Positions 1-5,858 of a stretch of DNA of 5,858 nucleotides are shown in pieces. The notes under the pieces were generated by a model. It was not told where the DNA came from, searched no databases, and was given only the letters and a program-made list of their open reading frames with translations. The stretch lies in IMG/VR virus record IMGVR_UViG_2778261179_000010. The stretch is one strand, 5' to 3'. This DNA comes from a virus. Lineage: Duplodnaviria > Heunggongvirae > Uroviricota > Caudoviricetes. Every line of letters starts with the position of its first letter. Within the stretch, counting starts at the first letter, position 1. The translations under genes and the position numbers were made by a program.

Positions 1-62
1 GTCGGGAAGATGCGTGATCTGATCCTTCAACTCAGCAAAAGTTCGATTTATTCAACAAAGCC
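1..62 (-). mobile_element. IS903-group (IS5 family) insertion sequence terminus, partial; IS body lies beyond the window start, terminus at base 62
   Basis: Bases 1-62 are the exact reverse complement of 5797-5858 (mismatch begins at base 63 vs 5796). The terminal 18 nt read GGCTTTGTTGAATAAATC into the element, continuing GAACTTTTGCTGAGTTGAAGGATCAGATCACGCATCTTCCCGAC, which I recall as the IS903 end that abuts aph in Tn903-derived cassettes. Identity is from memory, not a search. Confidence 0.75.
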
Positions 63-214
63 CCTTCAAATTACAGAGCACTTATAAATAACAGCAGTTA
101 ATATAAATTGGCTAATAGATTTATTTTTATTCAGCCAAGAGCCATGAATAGGATTCGATAGAAAAAAGTTCAGATAAAAATAGAGATCTACTTCACAAAT
201 CAAACGAGAAACCA

Positions 215-260
215 AAACTTACATCTTGAAATAATCACATTGATTAGATGAATATTTATC
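215..260 (+). promoter_or_regulatory. Candidate porin promoter region: TTGAAA -35-like hexamer (226..231), weak -10 candidates around 249..258, overlapping an OmpR-box-like motif
   Basis: AT-rich region about 60-90 nt upstream of the porin ATG. CTTACATCTTGAAATAATCA resembles the ompC C1 OmpR box (TTTACATTTTGAAACATCTA) as I recall it. The -10 hexamer is poor, so the call is tentative. Confidence 0.25.
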
Positions 261-307
261 GCGCAGTGACATCATTTTTTAATAATAGTTCAAAAAAAGG
301 GCTCACG

Positions 308-1390
308 ATGAAAAAATTAACAGTGGCAATTTCTGCTGTAGCTGCATCAGTACTGATGGCGATGTCTGCTCAGGCAGCTGAAATTTATAATAAAGACAGT
401 AACAAGCTGGATCTATATGGGAAAGTTAATGCCAAGCACTACTTCTCCTCTAATGATGCAGATGATGGTGATACTACTTATGCCCGTCTTGGCTTCAAAG
501 GTGAAACCCAAATCAACGATCAACTGACTGGTTTCGGTCAGTGGGAATATGAATTCAAAGGCAACCGCGCTGAATCTCAAGGCTCCTCCAAAGACAAAAC
601 CCGTCTTGCATTTGCAGGCCTGAAATTCGGGGACTACGGCTCAATCGATTACGGCCGTAACTACGGTGTAGCATATGACATCGGTGCGTGGACTGACGTT
701 CTGCCAGAATTCGGTGGCGATACCTGGACCCAAACAGATGTGTTCATGACTGGTCGCACCACTGGTGTTGCAACTTATCGTAACAACGACTTCTTTGGTC
801 TGGTTGATGGTCTGAACTTTGCTGCTCAGTATCAGGGTAAAAATGACCGCACTGACGTAACTGAAGCTAATGGTGATGGTTTCGGTTTCTCCACTACTTA
901 TGAGTATGAAGGATTCGGTGTAGGTGCAACCTATGCTAAATCTGACCGCACTAATAATCAGGTTATCTACGGTAACAACAGCCTGAATGCATCTGGTCAA
1001 AATGCTGAAGTATGGGCAGCTGGTCTGAAATATGATGCGAACAACATCTATCTGGCTACCACCTATTCTGAAACCCAGAACATGACTGTTTTTGGTAATA
1101 ACCATATTGCCAACAAAGCACAAAACTTCGAAGTAGTTGCACAATATCAGTTCGACTTCGGTCTGCGTCCGTCCGTTGCTTACCTGCAATCTAAAGGAAA
1201 AGACTTGGGTGCGTGGGGTGATCAGGACCTGGTTGAATATATTGATGTAGGTGCAACCTATTACTTCAACAAAAATATGTCCACTTTTGTTGATTACAAA
1301 ATCAACCTGATTGATAAGAGCGATTTCACGAAAGCATCTGGCGTTGCTACCGATGATATCGTTGCTGTAGGTATGGTTTACCAGTTCTAA
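308..1390 (+). CDS. nmpC: Outer-membrane general porin, OmpC/OmpF/PhoE family, prophage-encoded NmpC/Lc/OmpD-like; 360 aa with 23-aa signal peptide
   Basis: Same frame as track ORF 248..1390, but the real start is ATG 308 where a classic signal peptide begins ([23 protein letters not shown], then AEIYNKD). AAGGG Shine-Dalgarno about 8 nt upstream. Porin hallmarks: [82 protein letters not shown]-terminal VYQF. Position next to the Q gene matches nmpC in DLP12. Confidence 0.93.
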
Positions 1391-1400
1391 TTTGATTACT

Positions 1401-1440
1401 AAAAGATATGTTGTGGGAGGCTTTGCCTCCCCAACATATA
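1401..1440 (-). terminator. Long imperfect hairpin (ATATGTTGTGGGAGGC-TTT-GCCTCCCCAACATAT) followed on the - strand by CTTTT; candidate tR'-like terminator for the short transcript downstream of Q
   Basis: About 15-bp stem with one bulge at 1406..1440. On the - strand it is followed by a T-run (complement of 1401..1405). It lies about 140-170 nt downstream of the Q stop, where lambdoid phages place pR'/qut/tR'. Confidence 0.4.
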
Positions 1441-1526
1441 AGTGGCTCCCTCAAGCCACTTCCTTTAGAAGCACAACCTTGCTTCTAACTATATAAACCT
1501 TCTGTTATATATTACCCTTTATTTTT

Positions 1527-1556
1527 GGGGGCGTTTCAACGCCCCATTTTTAATAA
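1527..1556 (+). terminator. Rho-independent terminator for the porin transcript
   Basis: GC stem GGGGCG / CGCCCC (1528..1533 and 1540..1545) with 6-nt loop, followed by ATTTTTAATAATTTTT; about 140 nt after the porin stop codon. Confidence 0.6.
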
Positions 1557-1578
1557 TTTTTAGTAAACAATTGGCATA

Positions 1579-1962
1579 TTAATTAGAGTTATTAACAACG
1601 ATATCCATCTCTAACCGGATATCTAATGCCATTAACATCCCTTCAATTATGCCCTCAGCCTTCTGTAACCTTTTCCCGATATAACCATCAGAGCAGCAAT
1701 GCTTACCTGCCAGTGACATGAATGTCATACCGACTACATAATAATCTACTAATAAATCGTGCAAATCGCTGTTGTTCTTTTTCAGACGGGCCATGCACCC
1801 GCAAATGATCATCGCGTCATCGTCACAACATTGCGGGCGAGATTTTACTTTTGAAGGAATTAATCCCTTAAAACCGGCGGCAATGGACGACCAGGTCACA
1901 TCTTCATGATTATTAGCCGCCCACGCTCCCCAACGCTCAAGAACCATCTGAATATCACGCAT
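1579..1962 (-). CDS. quuD: Late-gene antiterminator Q (phage 82 / DLP12 QuuD family), 127 aa
   Basis: The track ORF 1579..1977 begins at a TTG. The ATG at 1962 ([24 protein letters not shown]...) has a GGAG Shine-Dalgarno about 9 nt upstream and gives 127 aa. Cys-rich core ([29 protein letters not shown]). Synteny rusA-ylcG-Q-porin as in DLP12. Confidence 0.88.
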
Positions 1963-2047
1963 CAACTTACTCCACAAAAATCAGACCAGAACGCCAATTA
2001 CAAGCAAAAATCAACGAAACAGTATTAGTTGATTGTTATCTCTGACT

Positions 2048-2188
2048 TCATACTCCTGCTCCTGTCAGGGTTTTGGCGTAATTCTTCAGTATTCGGTAAT
2101 CGGTCAAAACAGAACCGGGGAAACGATATAAGCGCAGACGCCCCCAGCGGTGGCGAAGACGTTCTGCCATATAAAACTCAAACATCAT
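2048..2188 (-). CDS. ylcG: Small prophage protein, YlcG-like, 46 aa ([46 protein letters not shown])
   Basis: Hand translation of the - strand. Its ATG (2188..2186) overlaps the rusA TGA stop (2187..2185) as ATGA. GGGGA Shine-Dalgarno 5-6 nt upstream. Length and position between rusA and Q match my recollection of DLP12 ylcG; the sequence identity itself is not verified. Confidence 0.5.
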
Positions 2189-2547
2189 TCATTCCCCATT
2201 TCGGTGATGGTCAGTTCCAGCCTCCCACCTTTGGTAACAGGCATCTTCACAACGCGGTAATCAACGACCTGAGCATCATCCAGCCAGAAACCTGCTTTAG
2301 TGAGTGCGTCAAAAGCGGCTTTTTGCAGATTATCCAGGTCACGGCGACGGCGATCCGGCATGTGGCACTCAATGCGGATTTTCACAGGCATAGCCAAGCC
2401 GATATCCAGCATTGCGTTTTTAATGATTCGGGCGACGTTATCGCGGTATGCCTGCCCCTCTGCGCTGACGTGCGTGCGCCCGCGATTATGGCGGTAATAG
2501 CGATTATTGCTCGGAGGCCAGGGTAATGTGATGCTGTAGGTATTCAC
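2185..2547 (-). CDS. rusA: Holliday junction resolvase RusA (crossover junction endodeoxyribonuclease), 120 aa, GTG start
   Basis: Track ORF 2185..2610 trimmed to the GTG at 2547 ([42 protein letters not shown]..., ending TITEMGNE), giving the 120-aa RusA length. GAGGGGG Shine-Dalgarno upstream. The GTG overlaps the ybcO stop as GTGA. Confidence 0.88.
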
Positions 2548-2834
2548 GCCTTGATTACCCCCTCTTTCAGCCAGATAACCTGCGTTCTCGCCATACCTTC
2601 CAGCGCGCATTCTTTTGCGTACTCAGCATCGACAAAATGCGTGCGGCGGTCGATTTCGTCGTGACAGGCAGAACAGGCAATGGTGGCAATAAGGTCTGGC
2701 GGTTTAATACCGGTGCCACACAGTCCAGCCAGCCGGATATGTGCCAGTACAGACGTTTCAGGGTTGCCATTGCATACGCCAGGGATTCTTACCTGGCATT
2801 CGCGACCACGCGCTGCTTTTCTCAAATCAGCCAT
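2544..2834 (-). CDS. ybcO: Prophage nin-region protein YbcO (DUF1364-type putative nuclease), 96 aa
   Basis: Track ORF 2544..2873 trimmed to the ATG at 2834 ([32 protein letters not shown]...), which has a perfect AAGGAGG Shine-Dalgarno. Cys-rich (CxxC-type) motifs. Position between ninE and rusA as in DLP12. Confidence 0.82.
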
Positions 2835-2997
2835 GATTCCTCCTTGCTGCCAGTCGCAACCATTTTTTATCAACCAGGCTGGCGGTATATCCGAGCAGTG
2901 TTGGTATTTCGGATGGTTTTAGCTCAGGCTTACGCTTACGACGATTTGGTACTCTGTAGATGTGTCCGTTCATGACACGAATAAGCGGTGTAGCCAT
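2827..2997 (-). CDS. ninE: NinE-like small protein, 56 aa ([56 protein letters not shown])
   Basis: Not in the ORF track (too short); found by hand translation. Its ATG (2997..2995) overlaps the ybcN TAA stop by 1 nt, and its 3' end overlaps the ybcO start by 8 nt. The sequence matches my recollection of lambdoid NinE. Confidence 0.75.
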   Translation of the reverse strand: MATPLIRVMNGHIYRVPNRRKRKPELKPSEIPTLLGYTASLVDKKWLRLAARRNHG

Positions 2998-3452
2998 TAC
3001 GCCTCCTGCTTGTCGCGCAGCAGCTGGAACTCGCAGCTCTGCGGAATAGTCAGGTGGCAGCCAATATTCATCGCCAAGGCTTCAACCTTACACAGGAAGA
3101 CATACATCTCTCCGGTATCAAGATCGGAGGTATGGCGTAACGACTGGATAGTAGTGATTTCGCCGGTTACGACATCAACCAGGTCCTTGGTTTCATAACC
3201 GAGGTATGTGTGTTTGAGAGCATCTTTTACCCATGCTGCGGTAGCGAACGATTTCCCCCTGCGGATAAGGTATTCACTGATTTCGCTGTACCACATGTGG
3301 CTAAGTGCATTCTGGGAAAGACTGCGTCTCTCGCGCCACGGTTTAAGCACCATGCGAAAGCACTTGCCGTCTTCCAAATAAGGCTGGAGCTGCTGACCGA
3401 TAGCGGTGAAGTTACCGCGATGCAGTTTGATGCCGTCTTGTGGGAGGTTCAC
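2997..3452 (-). CDS. ybcN: Prophage protein YbcN (DLP12 nin-region protein, reported DNA base-flipping protein), 151 aa, GTG start
   Basis: Track ORF 2997..3452; the first codon is GTG (complement of CAC at 3450..3452) with a GGAGG Shine-Dalgarno 7 nt upstream. Protein [30 protein letters not shown]... Synteny upstream of ninE. Confidence 0.82.
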
Positions 3453-3550
3453 GCTTCACCTCCGCAGAGGTCAAACGCTGGATAAAGAAAATCGCAGGTG
3501 CATTTCTGCATCTGTGACGGGAGAAGATAGTTTAGATTGTATGTGCGCAT
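3449..3550 (-). CDS. Small ORF, 33 aa ([33 protein letters not shown]), possible ylcH-like gene
   Basis: ATG at 3550 with a GGGGA Shine-Dalgarno-like element about 5 nt upstream. Its TGA stop overlaps the ybcN GTG start as GTGA, suggesting translational coupling. Size and position resemble what I recall of DLP12 ylcH; unverified. Confidence 0.35.
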
Positions 3551-3571
3551 AAACGTCCCCGTTTAGCGCAG

Positions 3572-3604
3572 AAGTCACCGGAGGAGTTCAAACTCCGGTG
3601 ACTT
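3572..3604. repeat. Perfect inverted repeat / stem-loop (AAGTCACCGGAG - 9 nt - CTCCGGTGACTT), 12-bp stem
   Basis: Seen directly in the sequence, in the intergenic region between the HEPN-cassette stop (3674) and the ylcH-like ORF. No T-run follows on either strand, so it is not a classic intrinsic terminator; it may be an operator, an RNA structure or a module boundary. Confidence 0.5.
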
Positions 3605-3673
3605 AATTATGACAAGTTGATTATTGAAAATCAAAAGTCATTTAAACAATAATGATACCCAGCAAGAGATTTC

Positions 3674-4075
3674 TTATTTTAACTCATAGATCAGACAGTC
3701 AACGATTTCTAAACCATTTACCATAGAATTAGAAACGCGAACTTTACCATCGTTGACTCTAGCAAATCCTTTTAACATTTTATAAACAAAAGCTGAATCC
3801 CCCTTAGCCTCAATTGCTTCTAATGGTATCGGCTTATACTTTTTTGATATGCTATTTCTATTTATCTCACTGATTTTTCTATATATTTCTGCCGGCCCAC
3901 GTTCTGAGAAGTCACTGATAACTAAAATATATCTCCAAGATAGATCTGGGTAATAAAACCACATTGCAGCATCAATAGTTAAATTCTGTAACTTGAGTTT
4001 TTTTAACAAAAATTGACCTGAGAATTCCATATCTTTTGTCAACTCTCTGCCGATTACCAGTGTGCTTTTACCCAT
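3674..4075 (-). CDS. Hypothetical protein, 133 aa, second gene of the HEPN cassette (candidate cognate partner)
   Basis: Track ORF. The ATG at 4075 has a GGAG Shine-Dalgarno about 10 nt upstream and lies 22 nt inside the 3' end of the upstream HEPN gene. AT-rich codon usage like its neighbour. I see no nucleotidyltransferase (GS...DxD) or other recognisable motif. Confidence 0.6.
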   Translation of the reverse strand: MGKSTLVIGRELTKDMEFSGQFLLKKLKLQNLTIDAAMWFYYPDLSWRYILVISDFSERGPAEIYRKISEINRNSISKKYKPIPLEAIEAKGDSAFVYKMLKGFARVNDGKVRVSNSMVNGLEIVDCLIYELK

Positions 4076-4470
4076 TTCAAAACTCCAGAATTTTGGTCAC
4101 CTACAGCATCAAACAATTGTTCGGCCATAGCTTTACTTATGTTATTGTCGTATCTAAATTGCTCGCTCCAGTCTTTAACGACCGACCAGTTAATCTCCAA
4201 CGAAACATCATTTTTTGCGTCAGCAATCAAAATTTGATGTAAGTTGGCAATTTTGAGAAGTTGCGACAAATCATGAGTATATGAATCATTTACGACTTTT
4301 TTGTTTGGAAACTCATGTTGTAAAAATGACTTGGCAATACAGGCCTTCAATGCACATTCAACTGCATACCCACAAAGATAATATGCACCATGAAAAAAGC
4401 CATGATCAAGCAAGCATTTGGCCTCATTAAGCCTAGTGTCAGATAATGCTTCAAGGTCGTTTTTATTCAT
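4054..4470 (-). CDS. HEPN-domain-like protein, 138 aa (candidate toxin/RNase or nucleotide-binding component)
   Basis: Track ORF. The N-terminal helix pair LNEAKCLLDHGFFHGAYYLCGYAVECALKACIAK, the HDLSQLLK segment and C-terminal FRYD fit the classic HEPN four-helix signature. No obvious Shine-Dalgarno. The region is markedly AT-rich relative to the flanking prophage genes. Confidence 0.62.
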   Translation of the reverse strand: MNKNDLEALSDTRLNEAKCLLDHGFFHGAYYLCGYAVECALKACIAKSFLQHEFPNKKVVNDSYTHDLSQLLKIANLHQILIADAKNDVSLEINWSVVKDWSEQFRYDNNISKAMAEQLFDAVGDQNSGVLKWVKAHW

Positions 4471-4715
4471 ACAATTATAACTTGAATTATCCTAATTTTT
4501 ATGATTATACCCTTATCAGGTATGATGTAGGAACTGAAAACAATATTGGATATCATTTTCGGTATTTCTCTGCAAATTCCAGCCCACAGGATCTCGGTGT
4601 ACAATCTGTCGCTGATCGCGCAAATTTAGGGTCAATCACTTCATTTTTTGCATCAAACCCTCACTAACATCGAACGATTATAGTACAAGTAGTGTTCTTG
4701 ACTTCTCATTAAACC
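4471..4715 (-). promoter_or_regulatory. AT-rich promoter region of the HEPN cassette with two perfect TATAAT hexamers on the - strand (4509..4504 and 4682..4677)
   Basis: About 300-nt intergenic region between the ant-like gene stop and the HEPN ATG. The proximal TATAAT is about 34 nt upstream of the ATG. The matching -35 elements are weak (for example AAGTCA). Confidence 0.35.
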
Positions 4716-4769
4716 GTCAGCATTCAATTAATTACAAAATACTAGCGGCATTTCTCTCCCGCAACTTTA

Positions 4770-5378
4770 TTACAGCCGTTCAGAACGTAAATGCGTCAAT
4801 ACTCGACTCCACTTATCATCCTGCCACGGCCGGAATTTTACATGTGCCGTTTCTCTGGCAAGGATTGCCTGTGCCTTATTGAGTATCCGGGGATATTCTT
4901 GTTCGATTGAAGTGAAGCGACCGGCTTCGCGGTGTTCTGCTACCTGAAGAAGCGGAGTGACGTTTTGGCAAGCGGTTAACATTGTGTCACTTGCCCGCCA
5001 TAACCAAGCAAGTGTGCAAAGTTCGTTATCAGTGAATTGTTTTGTGATTGGGGATTGTTGAATTTCTCGATCGAGAATATCCAGCACCCAGCGGCGGAAT
5101 TCTTTGGCCACAGGAGTGCGGGCGAACATGGCGATCAGATGGGCGCCACGGAGGGAGAAAATGCGAGTCTTCTTACGATAATTTCCTGAGGTCGTTGATT
5201 CGACGACCTGAGACATTCCGTCAGTAAACTCATCAATATTTTTGTTGTAGATGTCGGTTACTGCTTTGGTGCTGGCATATTTTAATGCTGCCGCCAATTC
5301 TTTGCTGGTAAACCAGATCTGGTTGTTGTGATTTATAGGAGTGAATTTTACATCGCGGAATGCGAGCTGAGTGACCAT
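4770..5378 (-). CDS. Phage antirepressor-like protein (Bro-N / AntA / P22 Ant N-terminal-type domain; Roi-like), about 202 aa
   Basis: Track ORF 4770..5615 begins at a TTG. The domain signature (LAFRDVKFTPINHNNQIWFTSKELAAALKY ... TRIFSLRGAHLIAMFARTPVAKEFRRWVLDIL) starts right after the ATG at 5378, so that start is preferred. The alternative ATG at 5513 cannot be excluded. Confidence 0.6.
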   Translation of the reverse strand: MVTQLAFRDVKFTPINHNNQIWFTSKELAAALKYASTKAVTDIYNKNIDEFTDGMSQVVESTTSGNYRKKTRIFSLRGAHLIAMFARTPVAKEFRRWVLDILDREIQQSPITKQFTDNELCTLAWLWRASDTMLTACQNVTPLLQVAEHREAGRFTSIEQEYPRILNKAQAILARETAHVKFRPWQDDKWSRVLTHLRSERL

Positions 5379-5540
5379 AGCGATAATCTCGTTTTGAATT
5401 TGAGCTATCACCACCGACGACGCCAATCGACTGGTGGTGGACTGTGCAAGGTTGGCGTAACCGGTCAAAACGAAATCCGGCGCTTCCGAAGAAGCCCTCA
5501 CACAGCCCACCATAATTTTTGTGTAGACGTGCACTGCGCA

Positions 5541-5562
5541 TAAAAAAACCGCGAACGCGGTT
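5541..5562 (-). terminator. Small GC hairpin (ACCGC-GAAC-GCGGT) followed on the - strand by TTTTTTTA; candidate intrinsic terminator or attenuator
   Basis: Seen directly. The stem is short (5-7 bp) but the T-run has 7 T's. It lies about 160 nt upstream of the preferred ant-like start. Confidence 0.45.
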
Positions 5563-5622
5563 ATGCGTCGTTTTGATGTCCGGGACGCCAATCCCGTGTG
5601 CCGATTTTGCGGCAACGCACAG

Positions 5623-5652
5623 AATATAGCGCCGGATAAATAATGTCGTCAA
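5623..5652 (-). promoter_or_regulatory. Candidate sigma70 promoter on the - strand: TTGACG (5652..5647), 18-nt spacer, TATATT (5628..5623)
   Basis: Hexamers match consensus at 5/6 each. The predicted start site near 5616 is about 55-75 nt upstream of the 5541..5562 hairpin. Confidence 0.35.
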
Positions 5653-5796
5653 CCCTTGCATATGGGGGGCGCGATGATCACTACTACCACCATAATCGCT
5701 CCAACTGTTGCAACTACTTTAGGCTAAGACATCACGATTTCCATATCACCTTTAGCCGCCAGACAAACAGAGACTCCCTGTTCTTGGCTGCCAAAA

Positions 5797-5858
5797 GGCT
5801 TTGTTGAATAAATCGAACTTTTGCTGAGTTGAAGGATCAGATCACGCATCTTCCCGAC
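5797..5858 (+). mobile_element. IS903-group (IS5 family) insertion sequence terminus, partial; IS body lies beyond the window end, terminus at base 5797
   Basis: Exact reverse complement of 1..62. Begins with the 18-bp terminal repeat GGCTTTGTTGAATAAATC reading into the element. Confidence 0.75.

Follow-up and report, generated by a model that had tools for sequence, protein, structure and literature searches.

Two inverted IS903B copies probably flank a 5.7-kb slice of a DLP12-like cryptic prophage in one bacterial isolate

The window, which is the whole 5,858-nt stretch of DNA analysed here, is best explained by two inverted copies of IS903B inside a resident DLP12-like lambdoid cryptic prophage of one bacterial isolate, a reading to which we assign a probability of about 80%. 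One IS903B copy would separate the porin gene from the lysis cassette, lying 246 nt upstream of the former, and the other would sit on the replication-gene side of the isrK/C4/antirepressor module, about 180 nt upstream of it. Passive accumulation of insertion sequences (IS) in a defective prophage is the most likely origin of this arrangement.

The window corresponds to the complete 5858-bp contig NLPS01000170.1 of the draft assembly GCA_002230635.1. The initial annotation had described its first and last 62 nt as perfect reverse complements that match the end of IS903. A repeat finder and a direct string comparison both confirmed that the two arms are complementary at 100% over 62 nt, which far exceeds what could arise by chance, and both arms were identified as the first 62 nt of IS903B. 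The repeat occupies the extreme termini of the contig, and its 62-nt extent marks where the contig stops. The two IS stubs and the predicted target sites next to them are as follows:

1–62, minus strand: IS903B stub, reverse complement of IS nt 1–62 (IRL, the transposase-proximal end), 100% identity; the rest of the element continues beyond the left contig edge
63–71, no strand: 9-bp sequence (CCTTCAAAT) predicted to be one target copy of the left insertion; breakpoint located by alignment, duplication expected from the known behaviour of IS903
5788–5796, no strand: 9-bp sequence (CTGCCAAAA) predicted to be one target copy of the right insertion; breakpoint located by alignment, duplication likewise expected
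5797–5858, plus strand: IS903B stub, IS nt 1–62 (IRL), 100% identity; the rest of the element continues beyond the right contig edge

Thousands of plasmids carry annotated IS903B elements that open with exactly this 62-nt sequence (100% identity), and a search of plasmids with this query gave a match of at least 99% in 3515 of the best 5000 records. In plasmid Rts1, it forms nt 1–62 of a complete 1057-bp IS903B (L012 1301–2357). The terminal 18-bp inverted repeat of the IS903 group (IS5 family), GGCTTTGTTGAATAAATC, begins both stubs at the junction with the cargo, and beyond this repeat the stubs (nt 19–62) likewise match the IS903B of Rts1, and that of thousands of plasmids, at 100% identity. 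Because the two ends of IS903B, IRL and IRR, have only their terminal 18 nt in common (the IRR stub sequence begins GGCTTTGTTGAATAAATCAGATTTCGGG), both ends of the window can be assigned to IRL. The two IS copies are thus inverted, and their transposase genes would read outward, away from the cargo; at each edge the contig breaks off after 62 nt of IS, ahead of the transposase start. Elements of the IS903 type are routine in E. coli: 1947 of the 5426 complete genomes searched carry them, at 4610 sites on chromosomes, and a single genome can hold as many as 47 copies.

Between the stubs, bases 63–5796 (a 5734-bp interior) gave one ungapped-length alignment to IS-free DLP12-like prophages of 140 complete E. 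coli genomes, at 99.3% identity. Homology to the IS-free prophage starts at base 63 and ends at base 5796, and each stub starts at base 1 of the IS. The interior is collinear with these prophages, base for base at both breakpoints, and the region 1295–5796 contains only two differences from the IS-free prophage. The genes and RNAs of the cargo are:

308–1390, plus strand: prophage porin gene (NmpC/Lc/OmpC-like), 360 aa (Porin_1, 510 bits)
1579–1962, minus strand: quuD-type Q antiterminator, 127 aa (Phage_antitermQ, 181 bits)
2048–2188, minus strand: ylcG
2185–2547, minus strand: rusA, Holliday-junction resolvase (RusA, 82 bits)
2544–2834, minus strand: ybcO, DUF1364 putative nuclease (YbcO, 145 bits)
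2827–2997, minus strand: ninE (annotated ninE; precomputed PF05322 match)
2997–3452, minus strand: ybcN, NinB/Orf-like base-flipping protein (W126L variant)
3674–4075, minus strand: 133-aa partner of the HEPN gene (phrog_5760; no function assigned)
4054–4470, minus strand: HEPN-domain protein, 138 aa (HEPN, 27.8 bits; PDC-M28A, E = 1.8e-7)
4770–5378, minus strand: Bro-N/P22AR antirepressor, 202 aa
5430–5517, minus strand: C4 antisense RNA, upstream of the antirepressor gene (RF01695, 82.5 bits)
5542–5614, minus strand: isrK-type small RNA (RF01394, 64.1 bits)

The cargo of porin, Q, nin module, HEPN cassette and antirepressor that the initial annotation had listed was recovered in full, as the porin, Q, YlcG, RusA, YbcO, NinE, YbcN, the HEPN protein with its partner and the Bro-N/P22AR protein. 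The NinE Pfam score of 23.4 bits lies under the 25-bit cut-off, and a tRNA scan of the window found no tRNA genes. The porin and QuuD alleles are very common (about 17,000–30,000 blocks), and the W126L variant of YbcN is private to this isolate. The cargo is without an obviously selectable gene.

DLP12-like prophages carry essD-rrrD-rzpD, the porin gene and quuD-ylcG-rusA-ybcO-ninE-ybcN in this order, followed by the replication genes P and O. In the window, ybcN-ninE-ybcO-rusA-ylcG-quuD are likewise followed by the opposed porin gene, with the essD-rrrD-rzpD neighbours lying outside. The cargo is a collinear slice of a widespread DLP12-like lambdoid cryptic prophage, and the prophage indicates that the isolate is almost certainly E. 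coli or a close relative. In K-12, the same region of DLP12 is disrupted by an IS, namely IS5 in nmpC. Gene content and order are those of DLP12 and DLP12-like prophages (ybcN-ninE-ybcO-rusA-ylcG-quuD-nmpC-essD); compared with DLP12, however, the window carries IS903B, at two intergenic sites, and its slot between P and ybcN holds the HEPN pair and the isrK/C4/antirepressor module.

Draft assemblies typically break at IS copies and leave stubs at the contig edges (PMC5343135). As the window spans an entire contig, the 62-nt repeat probably owes both its length and its perfection to a short-read assembly that broke within a collapsed multicopy IS, rather than to biology. The assembler would have collapsed the IS903B copies and broken the contig 62 nt into each of them, which would leave the 5.7-kb unique segment on a contig of its own, terminated by perfect inverted repeats of 62 nt; a length of 62 nt would fit k–1 for a de Bruijn assembler run at k = 63. 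The stubs at the edges of short-read contigs on which IS mapping of the ISseeker type is based arise in the same way, from a multicopy IS that is collapsed and a break inside it that leaves a short edge stub (PMC5343135). Nothing material sets the present case apart from these; its one peculiarity is that the left and right edges share the same IS end. A viral inverted terminal repeat, and with it a complete linear genome, was considered and rejected, as the ends are IS903B. The example serves as a caution: where a short contig ends in perfect inverted repeats, these can be stubs of an IS that assembly has left behind, rather than viral terminal repeats or the ends of a discrete mobile element.

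If the two copies reside in the prophage as proposed, the sequence on the essD side is expected to read GATTTAAATTGAA, CCTTCAAAT and then IRR, and that on the P side IRR followed by CTGCCAAAA and ACACCGAATGC, each copy being flanked by a 9-bp duplication. Only the inner 9-mers, CCTTCAAAT and CTGCCAAAA, fall within the window, with the outer IS flanks lying outside. Exact searches for the left junction gave no match in IMG/VR, the GTDB representative genomes (one per species) or JGI metagenomes, and those for the right junction gave none in IMG/VR; in BLAST searches with sequences spanning each junction, no record among the 5426 complete E. coli genomes covered at least 80%. A protein look-up returned no record of the 41-aa hybrid open reading frame (ORF) of IS and cargo, and its 44-aa edge version is on record in the source contig only. 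For the predicted 48-aa product of the outer right junction in situ, the protein collection held no full-length match, perhaps because so short an edge ORF was never called. This search matched only unrelated IS903B-stub fusions: 90 entries named 'hypothetical protein, partial' in public drafts share only 20 residues, which are encoded by the IRR stub of IS903B, and we count these entries in favour of the preferred reading. We count against the preferred reading that no second genome carries either junction, and hence that the arrangement has no independent confirmation.

Two insertions are not the only route to this geometry. A single IS903B insertion followed by intramolecular replicative transposition 5.7 kb away, which would duplicate the IS in inverted orientation and invert the segment in one step, is possible but unlikely. 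IS903 uses conservative as well as replicative pathways and makes adjacent rearrangements (PMC11708052). Such an event would yield two inverted copies with the same end toward the segment, as seen in the window. However, its four junctions would be those of two independent insertions, which leaves the contig unable to favour it over the simpler model, and simple insertion is the commoner outcome for IS903. Because two insertions followed by RecA-type homologous inversion would give these four junctions as well, a contig whose two stubs are identical does not reveal the orientation of the segment.

It is doubtful that the stubs are truncated IS903B remnants or solo ends that do not form a functional IS pair. 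Only 62 nt of each copy are visible, the 62-nt repeat being uninformative on the completeness or identity of the copies, and partial matches to IS903-type elements exist in complete genomes, for example with 33–46% coverage. Yet a break 62 nt into the element implies a sequence that is repeated in the genome, and 2175 of 2853 matching records hold at least one IS903-type copy that covers at least 80% of the element length. Under the preferred reading of two insertions in the resident prophage, both copies would be full length.

The arrangement invites comparison with Tn903, in which two IS903 copies enclose aph(3')-Ia. The Tn903-derived kanamycin cassette of pIS2 has the reverse complement of IRL at 1507–1568, aph(3')-Ia at 1673–2488 and IRL at 2549–2610, and in Rts1 IRL also faces aph, as the stubs face the cargo in the window. 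The inference of the initial annotation that two inverted IS copies flank the segment, with the same end facing the cargo as in Tn903 around aph, agrees with this geometry and, at the level of the stubs, with both junctions being IS903B IRL. At this level, the cargo lies between two copies of the same IS, inverted and with the same end inward, and the structure can formally be described as a Tn903-like compound arrangement. Tn903, however, carries a cargo of about 1 kb with a resistance gene, whereas that of the window is 5.7 kb of prophage backbone; unlike Tn903, the window arrangement is seen in one genome, with no second location observed and the IS visible as 62-nt stubs only.

The initial annotation went on to propose that the segment is mobilisable as a composite transposon and invertible, and this was not borne out. 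In principle, the transposase could use the outer IRR ends, and RecA could invert the segment. An active 7.8-kb compound transposon of IS903B, module and IS903B that has moved as a unit to a new site, such as a plasmid, is nevertheless very unlikely, although its geometry is identical to that of Tn903 and, as is established for Tn903, the identical 18-bp terminal repeats would make the outer IRR pair a valid transposase substrate. The cargo has no obviously selectable gene, and it begins and ends at arbitrary positions of a prophage that runs on without a break in the 140 genomes. The search of other genomes and plasmids for the same cargo, which the initial annotation had suggested, found it in these genomes in IS-free form and with no junction; of 72,556 plasmids, none carried the cargo intact, the best match reaching 66% coverage and 92% identity. 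The same order of IS, cargo and IS in a second context was found neither among the E. coli genomes (n = 5426) nor in IMG/VR, GTDB, JGI metagenomes or plasmids. That the 7.8-kb unit functions as a compound transposon or invertible cassette, which would carry its module of porin, Q, nin, HEPN and antirepressor genes from one replicon to another, or flip it and so couple and uncouple Q-dependent late transcription and the lysis genes, is highly improbable.

Finally, a pure assembly artefact, such as a hairpin or chimeric contig with no IS beside the cargo DNA in the cell, is extremely improbable even though the repeat sits exactly at the contig termini, because each stub begins at IS903B base 1 where prophage homology ends, at two different prophage positions, a pattern that genuine transposition junctions produce and a fold-back would not. 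The artefact that the initial annotation had allowed for is thus confined to the perfection of the repeat, a contig-end effect; the IS junctions themselves are genuine.

The finding is an ordinary one. If transposition of the unit were shown, this would add a further example to the IS903 compound transposons, marked by an unusual phage cargo and of modest interest. What the window records is two IS903B insertions in the cryptic prophage of one isolate. They would separate the P side from the ant/nin/Q region, and Q/porin from the lysis genes, by about 1 kb of IS each, and would probably cripple the prophage further.

The two ends of the window (1-62 and 5797-5858) form an inverted repeat with 62-nt arms that are 100% complementary and a spacer of 5734 nt, as established by a repeat finder and by string comparison. 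A perfect repeat of this length cannot have arisen by chance. The initial annotation had described these perfect reverse complements and assigned them to an IS903 end, correctly on both counts: the 62 nt are 100% identical to nt 1-62 of IS903B, the start of elements that thousands of enterobacterial plasmids carry under the annotation 'IS5-like element IS903B family transposase', and 3515 of the 5000 best plasmid records match them at an identity of at least 99%. The complete IS903B of plasmid Rts1 is 1057 bp long (L012, the Rts1 stretch, 1301-2357), starts with GGCTTTGTTGAATAAATCGAAC... and terminates in ...CTGATTTATTCAACAAAGCC. String comparison of its transposase-proximal end (IRL) and its opposite end (IRR) revealed that only the terminal 18 nt are common to both; both window ends are therefore IRL, the end preceding the transposase start. 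The window breaks off at IS nt 62 and so does not reach the GTG, at about IS nt 80, with which the transposase gene begins; in the Rts1 record the coding sequence is annotated from IS nt 33. IRL at both ends signifies two inverted IS copies, whose transposase genes point away from the cargo (63-5796).

In 140 complete E. coli genomes (O26, O111, O103 and others), prophages that lack the IS align to the cargo as a single piece of identical length at 99.3% identity, and the match ends exactly at 63 and 5796 in all alignments listed. Against NZ_CM132655.1, homology starts at the base after the left IS tip and stops at the base before the right IS tip. With IS base 1 set against uninterrupted prophage at two separate positions, the junctions bear the signature of transposition rather than that of a fold-back artefact, and are real. 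Ungapped mismatches to NZ_CM132655.1 are concentrated in 74-1294 (124 of 126), which takes in the porin gene and, upstream of it, a short frame-shifted stretch, with two in all of 1295-5796. The porin allele of the window is itself very common, and together with the clustering this suggests a recombinant, mosaic prophage.

In the IS-free reference, the left site is preceded by terminase, nohD, ..., and rzpD-rrrD-essD. Between the two sites lie porin (+), quuD-ylcG-rusA-ybcO-ninE-ybcN, a 33-aa ORF, the HEPN pair and the antirepressor, while P, O, YdaT, cro-like and cI-like genes follow beyond the right site. The host element is thus a DLP12-like lambdoid prophage, and Pfam and PHROGs bear out the cargo originally listed (porin, Q, nin, HEPN, antirepressor). 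The porin ATG lies 246 nt downstream of the left IS, and 183 nt separate the right IS from the downstream isrK/C4 small-RNA pair, which precedes the antirepressor gene.

Features of the right part of the cargo
3674-4075, minus strand: 133-aa HEPN partner (phrog_5760, function unknown)
4054-4470, minus strand: HEPN-domain protein (Pfam, 27.8 bits; weak PADLOC PDC-M28A match, E = 1.8e-7)
4770-5378, minus strand: Bro-N/P22AR antirepressor gene, directly downstream of C4/isrK
5430-5517, minus strand: C4 antisense RNA (Rfam gathering-level match, 82.5 bits)
5542-5614, minus strand: isrK small RNA (Rfam gathering-level match, 64.1 bits)

The isrK/C4/antirepressor group looks like a P1/P7 immI-like or Gifsy-1 isrK-anrP-like control module inside a DLP12-like prophage. 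The HEPN gene and its partner overlap by 22 nt and are candidates for a two-gene system of toxin-antitoxin or defence type; the partner had no Pfam or PADLOC match, and no MNT-type partner was detected. The P-to-ybcN slot, occupied in the window by the HEPN/antirepressor block, is highly variable in related prophages (L002-L011, L015-L024; about 13.1-17.3 kb in L002), where it holds AraC, PBP and a serine recombinase; AAA_21 and RloB; SNIPE/T5orf172; HipA-like and DUF3037; DUF4145; or IS21 or Mu-type transposases. Accessory (moron) or defence genes appear to have a hotspot in this slot. In IS-free genomes, a direct repeat about 90% identical to window 3473-3560 (the 33-aa ORF region) lies just outside the right site (L001 11734-11845), so that the HEPN/antirepressor block has a direct repeat of about 90 nt on either side. 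The right IS903B sits at the exact edge of the second copy.

The window is identical to the reverse complement of all of NLPS01000170.1 (assembly GCA_002230635.1; 5858 bp) and is therefore a complete draft-assembly contig. Its YbcN carries W126L (window 3076) relative to the nearest complete genome. This exact protein was found in only two contigs in the entire collection, the second being a 1631-bp Logan contig from run SRR3987998 that maps to window 1950-3580; the variant is private to this isolate. The QuuD allele with Pro36 (window 1857, quuD residue 36) is very common, with 29,855 blocks listed. Multicopy IS elements are typically collapsed in draft assemblies, where contigs break and leave stubs at their edges (PMC5343135). 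Two flanking IS copies alone would suffice for such breakage, and a de Bruijn assembler run at k=63 would be expected to produce a stub of 62 nt. An early concern that the repeat is an artefact is thus partly justified: its length and perfection are probably properties of the assembly, and so have no bearing on whether the IS copies are complete or identical, but the junctions, with IS base 1 abutting prophage, are real.

The Tn903-derived cassette of pIS2 has the same arrangement as the window, with the reverse complement of IRL at 1507-1568, aph(3')-Ia at 1673-2488 and IRL at 2549-2610; in Rts1, IRL likewise faces aph. The statement in the initial annotation that Tn903 turns the same IS end toward its cargo matches both layouts. 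The geometry is that of Tn903, but nothing found shows the segment acting as a unit. IS903 transposase could in principle use the outer IRR ends as a valid substrate, and RecA the inverted copies; to call the segment potentially mobilisable or invertible, as the initial annotation did, is therefore fair, but the findings go no further than that potential. The suggested search for the cargo elsewhere yielded no intact copy among 72,556 plasmids (the best match, 66% covered at 92% identity, is a record of chromosomal-looking size), and the 140 complete genomes hold it IS-free. A set of 5426 complete E. coli genomes contains neither IS/cargo junction; IMG/VR, GTDB representative genomes and JGI metagenomes lack the left one, and IMG/VR also lacks the right one. 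IS903-type elements are common in E. coli: they are present in 1947 of these 5426 genomes, at 4610 chromosomal places, a single genome having as many as 47 copies, and in 2175 of 2853 matching records a copy spans 80% or more of the element. Two copies 5.7 kb apart in a prophage are unremarkable.

Because IS903 transposes both conservatively and replicatively (PMC11708052), three in situ histories are possible: two independent IS903B insertions; two insertions followed by RecA-mediated inversion; or one insertion followed by intramolecular replicative inversion. Worked through, the three lead to one identical set of four junction sequences and are therefore indistinguishable in short-read contigs. 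Different outer junctions would be expected only of a unit transposed elsewhere. We probed the outer-right flank by running the 48-aa edge ORF predicted for the in situ junction against the protein collection, which held no full-length match. The 90 matches, each a 'hypothetical protein, partial' from drafts of Klebsiella, E. coli and Enterobacter, share with it solely the 20 residues that the IRR stub of IS903B encodes, illustrating how routine IS stubs are. The source annotation contains a comparable partial 'gene' of 44 aa, which begins inside the IS stub and continues into the cargo (window 5724-5858, minus strand; 1-135 of the source contig, L013); a look-up in the protein collection found its product nowhere outside that contig. 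This 'gene' and the 90 similar stub fusions are annotation artefacts.

Taken together, the original observation is confirmed and its interpretation partly supported; insertions of IS903B, and contigs that end in IS stubs, are already known in kind. The IS903B pair most likely reflects a defective prophage passively accumulating IS copies. With these insertions, the replication genes would be separated from the ant/nin/Q region, and Q/porin from the lysis cassette, by about 1 kb of IS in each case. Both separations would probably further impair any residual lytic programme.
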